From contig CAVXVG010000026.1 in assembly GCA_963765145.1 (NCBI GenBank), positions 64,001-128,000 on the forward strand: a stretch of 64,000 nt of DNA, given 5' to 3'. Numbering within the stretch: the first letter of the stretch is position 1; the number at the start of each line of letters is the position of its first letter. Below are positions 1,429-9,061 of the stretch, in pieces. Source of the DNA: Parachlamydiales bacterium (lineage in GTDB: Bacteria; Chlamydiota; Chlamydiia; Chlamydiales; JAJFMK01). The translations under genes were made by a program, and so were the position numbers. A model generated the notes under the pieces. It was not told the DNA's origin and did not search any database. It saw only the letters and a program-made list of their open reading frames with translations.

Positions 1429-4125
1429 GTGTTTAAGAGGCCGGATGGTTCTCTACGCGCCACCCACTCGACCATCGGTGCAGTGACCTTGAAGAGTTTT
1501 TTCCCTCTGAGGGAAGAGTTTCTAAGATCGTCTGAACATTCGTTTTTTTCTTTGAGTGGCCGTACTGTCACTGTGCATGTGAAAGGAATAGGAGGCGGTG
1601 GAAAAGGCTCGAAAATGAAGGTGAGGGAGCCGCAAGATTCGGCACAGTTAAGCCAGTTTTTAAGTACAGCCAATAGTTCTTCAAGCTCACCTGTCTCCTC
1701 TGTTTTTTCTTCCAATGTTTCGGAAGCGCCGGCTATCGCAAGTTCGCTTGAGGAAGATCTTCGCAAAGGAAATCATCCGGCTCTTGCTAATAAGGGGAAA
1801 GCATTGCTTCGTCTTGCAACGGAAAACCCTCCTCAAGATCCTTATCTTGTCGTTCAACATCTAGTCAATGCGATCACCTCTCCCCTTGCTCAAGGATTGG
1901 ATATCGTCATCAAGACAAAGCTGGCAGAGGCCCTCCACCGCTATGTCGACCTCACAGTGCTCAAATATTCAGTGCAAGAAAACAAAAAAGTATTGGGAGA
2001 TGGCAAACAAGAGATCTACGCTAAACTAGACAGCGCTCTTTCCCTTGTGGAAGACGAGTCATCTCAAAATAAACTGACGCACCATTTAGCTGCTTCTCAA
2101 GCCGGCCTTTACTCGCTGAAAGATACCACCCCTTTGGTGCAAAATAGTGTGATCGCCATTGTAAAGTTTGCGGCGGCAAAGGATGTGGGCGCCGGCCTTG
2201 CCCTTTTGAAACAGCTGGTGGACGAAAAGAGAAGATCGGACGAAGCAGATTGGTACATCGGCTTGATGGTTGTCCGCTCCCTCATCGAGATCAAAGGCGC
2301 TGCAGATACCGATTTCATCCTCGAGGAGGTGATCAAAGCTCTTGCAGACAATAAAGAATGGAAATTCCTCTTTGGCGGTGTCGAGGCGTTAGCTTTTTTT
2401 GTCCAACAGGGCAAAACACGTTCCATCCGAGGGCTTGCTTTTGGGGCGCTTCAGCGTTTTATTGTTTTTGATGAATTTCAACTCAAAAACAATTGGCGGT
2501 TACGGGCTGCTGCCCTTGAATGCCTCATCGGCCTGTTTGGCACAGAGGATGAAACGCTCAATGACCAGATCAAAGCAAAACTCATCGAGCGTGAGGCGAT
2601 AGAGACAGATGCACGTGTGCGTTCCTGCTTCAGTAGGCTAGAAAAAACAAAAGAGCTCCAGCAAGCGTGGGACAATCTGCTCAAAGAGGGGGGATATGAA
2701 GCGCTCATCGCTGCCGAGCAACAAAAACTCTCCTCTTCTCTTGCAGCGCTTGAGAGCAAAGAAAAAGAGATGGATGCAAGCGCGTTCTTTGCACTAAAAG
2801 CGGAACTCAAAAAGCAACAAAGCGCTCTGACCGAAAGGCAAGAAGCTCTTGAGAAAAGCCACAAAGAGCTCTCGAAAAAAGTGGATGCTCTTGCAACTGC
2901 ACAGCAAAAAACCGATGCCGTTGTTCAAGATCTTAAACAACGGCTCGATGCAAGAGAGGCCTTTTTTGATCCGGCCCTTCCAGCTTTTTTCCGCGTTCCA
3001 AACAGAAATTCTACTTTTGTTGGCCGCACCCAGCTTTTGACCACGATTCGAGACCGTTTTTCAGAAAAGACCCGCTCAACTCTCCAGGTTGTTCTTGCAG
3101 GGGAGAGGGGAGTGGGAGCTGCAGCCCTTGCGACAGAGTACCTTCACCAAAGAAAAGGGGACTACAACTTAGCGTGGTGGATTTTTGGCGCACGCCCCTA
3201 CGATGGGATACGGGACCTTGGCCTTGCCCTAGAGATCGGATTAACCCCCTCCGATCCAAGAGAAAAGGTCATCCGAGCGGTCAAAGAGCACCTCCAAAAA
3301 AATGAGGGATGGCTGCTGGTGTTTGCCGGTGTGGAAAACCCCGAGGAAGTTCAAAACTTCCTCCCGGCATCCGGGGGGCATGTCATCATCACAACCCCTA
3401 ACCTTGTAAAAAACAGCATTCCGGTTCCACCACTGCTTTCAAAAGAGGCTACCGACCTGTTTGTCAAACTCACAGGGGTTCGGGATGTAAACAAGGCAAA
3501 AGAGCTTGCAGCAACGTTGTTGCATAACCCCACAGCGATCGCTTTAGCTTCAGCCTACATCACCTATAAGCAGAGCTTTTACTTTGCTTACTTGACAGAG
3601 TTTCAAAAAATTGCCGGTACAAATACTCCATCCTCCTTATCGAATGTGCTTGCCCCCCTTTGGAAGATCACCTCGCAAGAGCTACAGAACGAACGGGCCA
3701 GGTCTCTCCCGCTCTCTTACCGAGCGGCTTTTTTTGACCCTCTCAATATTCCCAAAAATTTCTTAGTCGATGGCCCTTTGTCATCACAGCAAACCCTAGA
3801 TGTCAACCGCTCTTTTCTCCTTCTCAAGTCGTACGGAGTCCTTTTAGCCGCAGAGCAAGGGCTTGCCTTTTCCATCTCTCCCCTTCTTCAAGAGGCTATT
3901 CGGAACGCTCTTTCTGAAGAAGAGAAAAAGGCCATCCTCAGAGAATTATTTCTCACACTAAAAAACGAGTGGAAATTCTCCAAAAATGACCCCTCTACTT
4001 GGAAAGATGCCAGATTCTATGCGCCCCACATTGCGGCCTTTTGCACTCACGCCAAACCGTTCCCCGAATTTCGCGAGCAAATCCAAGCACTCACCCAAGA
4101 TTTAACCTTCGTTTCCACAACCTAA
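1429..4125 (+). CDS. GG-leader effector candidate: helical (HEAT/ARM-like) region, coiled coil and degenerate NB-ARC
   Basis: 898 aa. VHVKGIGG-GGKGSK motif; FRVPNRNSTFVGR; degenerate Walker A GERGVGAA and Walker B WLLVFAG. The true start may be ATG ~1353 with a frameshift near 1400. Confidence 0.75.
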   Translation: MFKRPDGSLRATHSTIGAVTLKSFFPLREEFLRSSEHSFFSLSGRTVTVHVKGIGGGGKGSKMKVREPQDSAQLSQFLSTANSSSSSPVSSVFSSNVSEAPAIASSLEEDLRKGNHPALANKGKALLRLATENPPQDPYLVVQHLVNAITSPLAQGLDIVIKTKLAEALHRYVDLTVLKYSVQENKKVLGDGKQEIYAKLDSALSLVEDESSQNKLTHHLAASQAGLYSLKDTTPLVQNSVIAIVKFAAAKDVGAGLALLKQLVDEKRRSDEADWYIGLMVVRSLIEIKGAADTDFILEEVIKALADNKEWKFLFGGVEALAFFVQQGKTRSIRGLAFGALQRFIVFDEFQLKNNWRLRAAALECLIGLFGTEDETLNDQIKAKLIEREAIETDARVRSCFSRLEKTKELQQAWDNLLKEGGYEALIAAEQQKLSSSLAALESKEKEMDASAFFALKAELKKQQSALTERQEALEKSHKELSKKVDALATAQQKTDAVVQDLKQRLDAREAFFDPALPAFFRVPNRNSTFVGRTQLLTTIRDRFSEKTRSTLQVVLAGERGVGAAALATEYLHQRKGDYNLAWWIFGARPYDGIRDLGLALEIGLTPSDPREKVIRAVKEHLQKNEGWLLVFAGVENPEEVQNFLPASGGHVIITTPNLVKNSIPVPPLLSKEATDLFVKLTGVRDVNKAKELAATLLHNPTAIALASAYITYKQSFYFAYLTEFQKIAGTNTPSSLSNVLAPLWKITSQELQNERARSLPLSYRAAFFDPLNIPKNFLVDGPLSSQQTLDVNRSFLLLKSYGVLLAAEQGLAFSISPLLQEAIRNALSEEEKKAILRELFLTLKNEWKFSKNDPSTWKDARFYAPHIAAFCTHAKPFPEFREQIQALTQDLTFVSTT

Positions 4126-4131
4126 GGATTT

Positions 4132-8800: not shown

Positions 8801-9061
8801 GCTCTTCCCCATTACAAGGAGTTTTTAGAGGTGATGAAGCGCAGTCTTGGGGGAAACCATCCGCATGTAGCGCTTGCCTATTATCACCTGGGAATTTGTT
8901 ACATGAACACAAGCGAGTTGGACACTTCCATCCAGCATTTTTCCGATTCTCTGCGCATCTATGAACAATGTTCTCCTCAAGATGTCCAAGCCATCAACCG
9001 TGTTACAAAAGGCCTTGATATTGCAAAGCAGAAAAAACTCTCTACCGTGACTTCTTTCTGA
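5813..9061 (+). CDS. GG-leader NB-ARC (STAND NTPase) plus TPR-repeat protein
   Basis: 1082 aa; QLKLMGG-GSKGSK; Walker A GTGGMGKT; Walker B LVFDNA; ILITSR; GHLPLAL; SLHRL; many TPRs (e.g. HPHVALAYYHLG). Confidence 0.9.
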   Translation: MTGVYVNPLLVQGQYSIHRDPESGALFGLIQGRKVIITGVSSSLSEKHFHQAKEALANCKLAEENGALTVQLKLMGGGSKGSKMRRPNSAPAPASGPAPTATVPANRGTEIVLASHWSVPKKNGDFVGREKLLSDISKQLKSSSKTILAGTGGMGKTSVACEYLYRHRNDYPFLVWWISADSPMNGFLDLGIELGVAKVGDKAQEVVEAVKGYLESQSNWCLVFDNAEKPADLQPFLPSKGGHILITSRNPHWQESINVDVFAPEESKELLTRLTGQPEAGSEALAELLGHLPLALTQAGSYIKTTQTSYAGYIDLFEQVRRELWQDETAPKDYSLTVGTTWKISVEKIRGQLPEALEVLYKSAYLYPNNIPSSLLIGLGEDELGFQKKLHILQSYSLLVAQDAGLYSLHRLIQTTTRDDLKVKQTQEILHKLLDAFKKEWVFNTEDLSTWESADTLVEHLKVFCTHIAQEKSMRIGRFIFLAGLGNYFHFSRTNLDQAALYANELIAMYQEEGQTPPPFVLLNLGRISLSQGNYAAAVDSLSRASALSGDGVEQDLTLTVAIEVVLGNAYLAQGEMKKAERCFKKALERADTTSHQSVAGALLGMAKLLALQGDSVQATTCMARAFEEYKQAYGEESYHLCDIYEQNGVNWLSQDPPQFALALECFQKGLELTRKTLGEKHLKFGMFLSTMGKIHHGLGNDAEAIRCHTQEIEIYKACLKMPHPVFISSYSGLGMAYQGQGNKALAIQYCKTALEISEALAGGDTPQSIETELCLSEVYIEQKNYDEAFKHTKAAIEGQEKLFGKRHPLLIKSYLTLGTICEDQNNLDLAERYLILASELCAEHNKPFDSSNGFTLGNVYFEQAKLDLNQGKHQLAIDKFLKALELFRKYEENGKSLAVVLLELADTYERLKDPKEIEYLSKYADFMRAKGNLPTLTGVLEEIAKKTRARGDLTTLIKTLEELVTIRRAGGDTVKLTATLHELATLYLSQQAYARALPHYKEFLEVMKRSLGGNHPHVALAYYHLGICYMNTSELDTSIQHFSDSLRIYEQCSPQDVQAINRVTKGLDIAKQKKLSTVTSF

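Follow-up and report, generated by a model that had tools for sequence, protein, structure and literature searches.

A modular N-terminal domain with a ubiquitin-like di-glycine tail on effector-like proteins of environmental chlamydiae

Introduction

Among the described systems closest to the genes reported here, effectors of the AvrPphB family undergo a cleavage that exposes a G..S acylation site (PMC2708883; this and the other papers cited are represented by parts of their text), ubiquitin ends in the tail LRLRGG (PMC10611586), and the C39 peptidase-ATP-binding cassette (ABC) transporters, termed PCATs, read an amphipathic helix with hydrophobic residues at positions −4, −7, and −12 before a GG motif (PMC10885120). 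The deubiquitinases (DUBs) of Simkania are described, in the available part of PMC10643670, only as acting on ubiquitin, and no role in effector processing is given to them there. Here, we report on a 64,000-base stretch of a chlamydial genome (Parachlamydiales bacterium, assembly GCA_963765145.1, contig CAVXVG010000026.1, positions 64,001 to 128,000; G000:C26:64001-128000 in our numbering and called the window below) in which four neighbouring genes encode a leader that ends in GG. The leader appears to be a real and modular effector pro-domain, apparently undescribed, and the statistics of the residues that follow it point strongly to a cut behind its ubiquitin-like tail.

The genome, G000, has a size of 2.68 Mb and is 85% complete. 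It is regarded as that of an environmental chlamydia because its same-order relatives include a genome with proteins labelled Parachlamydia by their source. Near-identical DNA also occurs in metagenomes from peat, where 7 runs, all from one year and perhaps from one campaign, reach a share of at least 0.2, and we infer that the host of this chlamydia is a protist.

Results

The Four Leaders of the Window Belong to a Wider Family

An initial annotation of the window had aligned GG junctions in four open reading frames (ORFs), named here by the coordinate of their start, and had interpreted each leader as a ubiquitin-sized secretion domain or pro-domain hiding an N-myristoylation signal. The four junctions were recovered in register, with GG at the residues that had been reported for the 4132, 5729, and 5813 genes and at a residue now assigned in the 1429 ORF (Table 1), and all four genes have Ser at +5 and Lys or Arg at +6. 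The Pro/Ser-rich linker was also recovered, in that the 45 residues after GG consist to 58–64% of Pro, Ser, Thr, Ala, Gly, or Asn in the four proteins. The four belong to a family of N-terminal domains of about 75 residues that are predicted to be folded. The size given to the leader holds, but the predicted order of secondary structure is not that of ubiquitin.

The kinship of the four leaders was evaluated by searches among the 18,656 ORFs of the genome. The 5729 and 5813 leaders retrieved each other (E values of 2e-4 and 1.5e-3) as well as further leaders elsewhere in the genome, whereas a pairwise search with the 1429 leader found none of the other three. The 1429 leader is the weakest member of the family (E = 0.64 against the wide profile). 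Its membership is nevertheless supported by an orthologue in genome G002 (40% identity over 912 amino acids), the leader of which is intact and ends in VAGG, followed by GSSSSK. The matching cluster of G002 contains three leader genes, and G-x-x-x-S-[KR] follows in every one.

Family profiles were built from leaders cut at GG, leaving the residues past GG unmodelled. A profile search of G000 gave 12 copies, 11 ending in GG and 1 without it, and the addition of the 1429 leader and of a fragment on contig C18 brought the number to 14; Gly follows in 13 of the 13 copies that end in GG, and Ser is found at +5 in 11 of these. A profile of 11 sequences matched 38 of 1.84 billion representatives, from which two false matches (P0019 and P0037) were removed. 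With iterated profiles, 17 of 399 other genomes of the order were positive, spread over nine families, and none of the 29 genomes of the small-genome family f4 matched; these genome counts are floors, as only about 14 candidates were scored per genome. Ten of the 74 iteration matches had no GG at the end of the model, namely 5 weak false matches, 3 true members, and 2 register-shifted leaders that were returned to the final count, and five genomes of an earlier tally of 19 rest on the false matches. Further divergent copies were found next to known leader genes, 3 of the 17 later leaders being recognized by eye as such neighbours. The final set comprises 81 sequences, which form 67 clusters at 60% identity. 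Known from sequence alone are 26 metagenomic proteins of the family, and the genome survey covered chlamydiae.

Leader genes are often arranged in tandem clusters, the copies per leader-bearing genome often number one to three, and the distribution is patchy. The cargo includes STAND, TPR, NB-ARC, U-box, LRR, ankyrin, patatin, CHAT, GTPase, and hydrolase domains, with a maximal length of 1,899 amino acids. Paralogous cargo without a leader is present in the same genome, and therefore the leader is a module: a conserved N-terminal domain, predicted to be folded, has been grafted onto unrelated eukaryote-like cargo. The differing cargo that had been noted for the window is seen in the helical protein of the 5729 gene, but the other three genes carry related STAND/NB-ARC-like domains, to which the 5813 protein adds TPRs. 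No match to the domain was obtained in Pfam (11 leaders scanned), no NCBIfam model covers it (38 leaders; six scattered single matches at E values of 0.03–0.1), and the ESM Atlas gave no usable match. In G125 (L072:11448-13379) and G259 (L119:10679-12001), which belong to different families, GTPase genes with the leader are arranged in tandem and are directly followed by a radical SAM gene.

Residues after GG Carry Signs of a Cut

Because the profiles end at GG, the sequence beyond it is a free test of the proposed cleavage. The first residue after GG (P1′) is Gly in 28 of the 67 clusters, Ala in 13, Met in 10, Val in 4, Ile in 3, Leu in 2, Ser in 2, and Cys, Lys, His, Thr, or Asp in 1 each. 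Thus, Gly, Met, Ala, Ser, Val, Thr, or Cys occupies P1′ in 59 of 67 clusters, relative to a background of 0.445 (p = 1e-13), and Pro, Asp, Glu, Asn, Gln, Arg, Phe, Trp, or Tyr occupies it in 1 of 67, relative to 0.322 (p = 2e-10), the background being the residues after GG elsewhere in this one genome. Met was found at P1′ in 10 of 54 clusters compared to 2.5% in the background, and the P1′ rule holds in 16 of the 17 later-found leaders. Under the N-end rule, the eukaryotic cytosol leaves protein starts of this P1′ set stable.

The initial annotation had asked for an enrichment of GxxxS after GG among homologues, and this enrichment is present: Ser is at +5 in 20 of the 28 clusters with Gly at P1′ but in 4 of the 39 with another P1′ residue (Fisher p = 3e-7). 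After P1′ Gly, the frequency of Ser is 0.78 at +5 and 0.04–0.26 at other positions, and within G000, Ser+5 occurs in 11 of 13 leaders versus 61 of 492 sites after other GGG; a further Ser count of 15 of 15 was circular and does not enter these figures. The coupling is weaker outside this genus (Ser+5 after Gly in 8 of 14, p = 1e-3). Cys at +2 to +4 (8 of 23 with P1′ Gly, 1 of 31 without) and Lys or Arg at +6 (10 of 23 and 1 of 31, respectively) show the same tendency. These p-values overstate the evidence because the clusters are not independent and most G-x-x-x-S rows fall in one clade.

Together, these residues form the N-myristoyltransferase pattern reported for AvrPphB-family effectors after their processing (PMC2708883), and a motif of Gly, a non-acidic +2, and Ser at +5 is present behind GG. 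A G-x-x-x-S pattern is useful only if its Gly becomes the N terminus. Because the P1′ set is skewed and Ser+5 is tied to P1′ Gly, cleavage after GG is well supported by inference, and we consider it very probable that the chain is cut exactly there. The proposal that removal of the leader unmasks myristoylation agrees with the coupling of Ser+5 and Cys to P1′ Gly, but as read from these sequences it applies to one subclass, mostly one clade; the other 39 of the 67 clusters would expose Ala, Met, Val, Ile, Ser, or other residues.

Alternatively, the domain could stay on the protein as a chaperone-binding or targeting header, with GG(G) serving as a flexible hinge before the Ser-rich linker. Linkers rich in Gly, Ser, and Pro and the existence of three members without GG are consistent with such a header, and shared uncleaved N-terminal domains have been proposed for Amoebophilus effectors (PMC3482391). 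A hinge, however, explains neither the invariant GG with R/K-L upstream, nor the enrichment of Met at P1′, from which acidic, amide, and aromatic residues are excluded, nor Ser only at +5 after Gly, and we regard an uncleaved header as improbable relative to cleavage after GG.

The Resemblance to Ubiquitin Lies in the Tail

Two AlphaFold2 models, with a predicted local distance difference test (pLDDT) score of 80 (11 sequences) and 87 (38 sequences), agree on an order of four strands, a helix, and two strands, and both leave the chain beyond the last strand free, from the tail that ends in GG through the linker; the model with a pLDDT of 80 is that of the 5813 leader. In ubiquitin, the order is two strands, a helix, and three strands, and so the comparison with β-grasp folds suggested by the initial annotation did not turn out in favour of such a fold. 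A structure comparison with 48,161 solved chains gave none at Z ≥ 5. There was no ubiquitin-like chain among the 50 matches listed, although a missing match is compatible with kinship to β-grasp folds. The best matches (Z of 3.9 and 4.8) were to propeller blades and PAXX/SAS-6 heads; chain 3wtd_A aligned to the leader model over 60 residues with a Z of 4.0 and a root-mean-square deviation of 3.6, and the best Foldseek E value was 0.6. These matches neither name the predicted fold nor prove it new. Ubiquitin Pfam profiles matched 0 of 11 leaders at E ≤ 1, and a search of PDB sequences with the A4 profile gave no ubiquitin-like chain among 20 matches at E ≤ 10. A partial PDB sequence match to argininosuccinate lyase (E = 0.016) was judged to be due to chance.

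The part of the leader that resembles ubiquitin is the tail, [VI]-x-P-[RK]-L-x-G-G. In the 67 clusters, P10 and P8 are hydrophobic, P6 is Pro in 35, P5 is Arg or Lys in 40, P4 is Leu in 41, and GG follows, in a register that matches LRLRGG of ubiquitin; several members read RLRGG exactly. Alignments have a mean column identity of 20–35%, and GG is their only invariant feature. All four Gly codons occur at both GG positions, and therefore GG is kept at the protein level. An origin of GG as a Shine-Dalgarno by-product was ruled out, as four Gly codons are in use and Met follows without a spacer. The leader also conserves a surface of its own, consisting of G-x-P and the strand pattern.

The match to the ubiquitin tail raises the question of whether the released leader is itself active, with its free GG conjugated to host proteins or serving as a decoy for DUBs or E1. 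The exact RLRGG of several members and the many E3-like U-box proteins among the cargos fit this idea. On the other hand, no stand-alone leader ending in GG-stop was found among the 81 collected sequences or, in a weak search, among 205 short candidates, and the leader surfaces are very divergent, with the visible selection lying on the cargo side of the cut. An active leader is thus quite improbable, and a tail that serves for removal of the leader remains the preferred interpretation.

Candidate Proteases and Export Route

The leader has no conserved Cys, His, or Ser and no conserved catalytic residue. As an alternative, the initial annotation had named a double-glycine leader, cut and exported by a PCAT. 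The GG end and a hydrophobic residue at −4 would suit a PCAT, and PCAT leaders of more than 70 amino acids exist (PMC10885120). However, a C39 domain over the cut-off was found in 0 of 5 leader genomes (one 99% complete and G000 85%) compared to 7 of 14 controls, and the weak C39 match that G000 gave is a peptidase not fused to a transporter, encoded in an ATP-grasp operon that also lacks one. Moreover, a strand rather than an amphipathic helix precedes GG, with Pro at −6 (35 of 67 clusters) and a variable −7, no GA or GS variants were seen, and the cargo reaches the length given above. The PCAT explanation is therefore very improbable and largely refuted. The operon with the weak match (L078:3660-8196, G000:C30) contains ATP-grasp ligase, glutamate-cysteine-ligase-like, amidohydrolase-like, and papain-like genes, named by reading their sequences.

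As the initial annotation had stated, no cognate protease is visible in the window. The genome, however, carries genes for USP and OTU proteases; the USPs number two intact and one split, and there is a single OTU. Among leader-bearing genomes, OTU is present in 9 of 15 and USP in 12 of 15, and no CE-clan protease was found (C48 in 0 of 5, C5 over the cut-off in 0 of 15), in a search that covered the C39, C48, C5, USP, and OTU families. USP-family domains occur in 92 of 151 genomes of a phylum sample and in 0 of 27 in family f4. USP and OTU genes are widespread in the phylum, and USPs, which 3 of the 15 genomes with a leader lack, do not track the leader. USP domains are far commoner in chlamydiae than the few characterized cases suggest; in one G000 protein of 1089 amino acids (G000:C21:7332-10598), the USP domain forms the C-terminal part and is joined to a long domain of no assigned type.

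The cut could instead be made before or during export by a dedicated chlamydial protease of a family outside those searched, so that the host would only acylate or stabilize the product. Such an enzyme could read the conserved surface of the domain, and the predicted fold, which is not that of ubiquitin, and a P4 that varies between Leu and Gly would be compatible with it. Against this stand the patchy occurrence of the leader, often in one to three copies, the absence of a protease gene from the leader clusters inspected, the failure of any tested family to track the leader, and the consideration that a cut before export would take away the putative secretion signal. We consider a dedicated protease rather unlikely. 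Because the leader is patchy and has no linked enzyme, whereas the host's proteases are always there, a host protease is the simplest explanation of cleavage after GG.

For export, no signal peptide was evident in 33 of 33 proteins in a simple hydropathy scan, which is not a predictor (highest 12-residue hydropathy below 1.7 in the first 40 residues). Leader N termini are richer in Ser, Thr, Pro, and Asn (0.34 versus 0.24, p = 3e-7), and a type III export gate is present in the genome; these features are consistent with type III secretion, and only that. A contractile-sheath gene was found in 0 of 5 genomes, and F-type TraC, over the cut-off in 2 of 5, does not track the leader. Because ubiquitin itself jams export by the type III system, a mimic of it would be favoured.

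Organization of the Locus

The features of the leader cluster are given in Table 1.

Table 1. Features of the leader cluster in window coordinates, with the position of the GG junction.
Feature	Coordinates	Strand	GG (coordinates; last residue)	Residues after GG (coordinates)	Description	Evidence
Short ORF	1353..1436	+			ATG-started, in another frame than the 1429 ORF and overlapping its start	Three-frame translation
1429 ORF	1429..4125	+	1591-1596; 56	GGKGSK (1597-1614)	898 amino acids; divergent leader remainder, Ser-rich linker, helical domain, coiled coil, C-terminal STAND/NB-ARC-like domain	Pfam, homology
4132 gene	4132..4758	+	4342-4347; 72	GCVPSR (4348-4365)	208 amino acids, truncated; leader, linker, start of STAND P-loop domain	AAA_16, E 8e-6
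Palindromic repeat	4704..4875	.			About 170 bases; like a miniature inverted-repeat transposable element (MITE) or repetitive extragenic palindrome (REP); ends the 4132 gene	Perfect 28-base arms, 4728-4755 and 4779-4806
5729 gene	4902..5729	-	5448-5453; 94	GSSSSK (5430-5447)	275 amino acids; leader, linker, helical cargo without Pfam match	Pfam scan, homologue
5813 gene	5813..9061	+	6038-6043; 77	GSKGSK (6044-6061)	1082 amino acids; leader, Pro/Ala linker, STAND/NB-ARC-like NTPase, long TPR array	TPR_12, E 2e-57; nSTAND1 weak

The short ORF is probably the 5′ piece of a broken 1429 gene. In the G002 orthologue, the leader is uninterrupted, and homology to the main frame of the 1429 ORF begins at window position 1411. 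In the 5′ stretch of this gene, a length difference of one base is seen in the contigs of three of four runs from peat metagenomes, and the break may therefore be confined to the present assembly or strain. The C-terminal domain of the 1429 protein is about 33% identical to the STAND part of the 5813 protein, its match to AAA_16 (E = 0.007) is below the cut-off, and a leaderless paralogue of its helical domain is located on contig C20. Homology of the 4132 gene ends at about 4720, with no continuation in any frame. The palindromic repeat that ends it (z = −8.7) has related copies at 17 places in the genome, and the contig depth over the bin that contains it is raised in four of four metagenome runs. 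A close intact homologue of the 5729 protein, P0003, has an identical junction.

Directly after the cluster, a RING-finger protein with hydrophobic segments and without a leader (window 9336-10508, +) is likely an E3-ligase-like effector, and a 1072-amino acid protein without a Pfam match or leader is encoded at 15415-18633 (-). Two leaderless STAND proteins share another N-terminal domain (G000:C26:58599-62294 and C21:192925-197988), and one of them lies close to the window on the upstream side. The leader fragment on contig C18 (L002:6336-6578; G000:C18:85335-85577, -) is of the 1429 type, with GG followed by GGKNSK, and is arranged tail to tail with a further STAND-TPR gene that bears a leader, which is a sign that these genes have been shuffled.

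Discussion

We propose, as a somewhat probable reading, that the domain serves chlamydiae associated with protists as a modular pro-domain of their effectors. It is about equally plausible that a type III system would export the protein unfolded by way of its N terminus rich in Ser, Thr, Pro, and Asn and perhaps of the domain itself. The chain would then, with high probability, be cut exactly after GG, and there is a reasonable likelihood that the cut would be made in the eukaryotic cytosol by a DUB- or ULP-type protease that reads the ubiquitin-like tail, belonging either to the host or to the secreted USP and OTU enzymes of the bacterium. The cargo would be left with a host-like start (Gly, Ala, Met, Val, or Ser) that is stable under the N-end rule. 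In the G-x-x-x-S subclass, to which all four genes of the window belong, the host N-myristoyltransferase would be likely to acylate the new Gly, with Cys or Lys/Arg as a second anchor, bringing STAND-TPR cargo to a membrane. The scheme would be equivalent to a natural ubiquitin-fusion construct on a non-ubiquitin fold; insertions of ubiquitin process NS3 of pestiviruses. In its most specific form, that of a portable 'pseudo-ubiquitin' pro-domain of a new fold, cut by host DUBs in a natural counterpart of the ubiquitin-fusion technique, the proposal is tentative. The enzyme, the compartment, and the lipidation are all inferred.

In one member of the family (G125, L072:4045-6216), the sequence past GG begins with GFLSLIPSVISFF and looks amphipathic. 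Arf GTPases have an amphipathic start, and by analogy this start is perhaps a second type of membrane anchor.

Several findings weigh against the proposed scheme. At P1′, one leader carries Asp, the absence of Pro alone is not significant (0 of 67, p = 0.18), and the small residues and Met could reflect the S1′ pocket of a bacterial protease rather than selection by host N-degrons. Only 2 of 6 later-found leaders of the Gly class have Ser+5, and in a quick tree a single leader clade holds 16 of the 21 G-x-x-x-S rows (support of 91 in the Shimodaira–Hasegawa-like approximate likelihood ratio test, SH-aLRT), and a single origin of the G-x-x-x-S leaders may be considered; the same tree contains a second well-supported G-x-x-x-S pair outside that clade. 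A loose myristoylation pattern of the PROSITE kind discriminates poorly (19 of 28 versus 203 of 492), and the register of the cut is ambiguous within GGG(G) runs. At P4, Leu gives way to Gly in 18 of 67 clusters, and three true members (the C29 copy, P0036, and L031) have no GG. Finally, the predicted β4-α-β2 order is not a β-grasp, and USP enzymes read the ubiquitin fold and not only the tail (PMC10611586), so that cleavage by host DUBs is not a given.

If the scheme is correct, it would represent an undescribed step in the life of effectors, a host-dependent maturation that sets the N terminus of many unrelated proteins and, through it, where they go and how long they last. The bacterium would keep an N-terminal secretion signal and could still choose the residue with which the effector begins in the host, be it Gly, to be myristoylated, or Met, Ala, Val, or Ser, for stability and acetylation, and activation of the effector might depend on entry into the host cytosol. 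It would also mean that a protease of the DUB type is able to process a fold other than that of ubiquitin by way of the tail. The leader, a small domain without a match among solved structures, provides a sequence tag for effectors in uncultured chlamydiae, with 81 proteins collected. Three members of the family carry the name Parachlamydia from their source, and this genus is grown in amoebae, which makes the idea open to direct test.

Literature searches found no description of the domain, most subscription journals being outside their coverage, and nothing on such a leader stands in the available parts of PMC13720258, a review from 2026 devoted to the ubiquitin system and bacterial effectors, or of the Simkania DUB paper (PMC10643670). 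The closest described systems each share some of its properties. PCAT/C39 double-glycine leaders have the GG end and the hydrophobic −4, but in the family described here there is no helix before GG, no PCAT was found, and the cargo is very large. AvrPphB, ORF4, and NopT of the YopT family resemble it in the removal of an N-terminal piece (in our case, a putative one), in P1′ Gly and P5′ Ser, and in palmitoylation of Cys (PMC2708883); an embedded site of this kind is found in four of four genes of the window and in 20 of 67 clusters family-wide. These proteins form one family and cut themselves after GDK-like motifs with their own cysteine-protease domain, whereas the leader has an LxGG site and unrelated cargos, most of which would expose residues other than Gly, and Pfam scans of the cargos found no cysteine-protease domain of their own (one cargo has CHAT). 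Fusion precursors of ubiquitin and ubiquitin-like (UBL) proteins, such as Fubi-S30 and ubiquitin-ribosomal protein, likewise consist of a domain of about 75 residues with an R/K-L-x-G-G end and an in-frame passenger that begins behind GG (PMC10611586), but they are eukaryotic β-grasp proteins or captured host genes, whereas the leader comes from bacteria, shows no match to these proteins in sequence, and differs in the predicted order of strands and helix. The APD1 and APD2 domains of Amoebophilus are constant N-terminal domains on variable U-box, STAND, GTPase, and repeat effectors (PMC3482391, PMC3417536). They follow a signal peptide and lipobox and are proposed to be surface anchors, with no cleavage mentioned in the available descriptions, in contrast to leaders without a signal peptide; this distinction is drawn from the published description rather than from an alignment. 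Therefore, the leader departs from each of the three in a defining property, namely the protease of its own in AvrPphB, sequence similarity in ubiquitin, and the signal peptide and lipobox in APD. With Simkania, which has SnUSP1-3 and SnOTU (PMC10643670), G000 shares USP and OTU genes of the same Pfam families, and their products are candidate processing enzymes.

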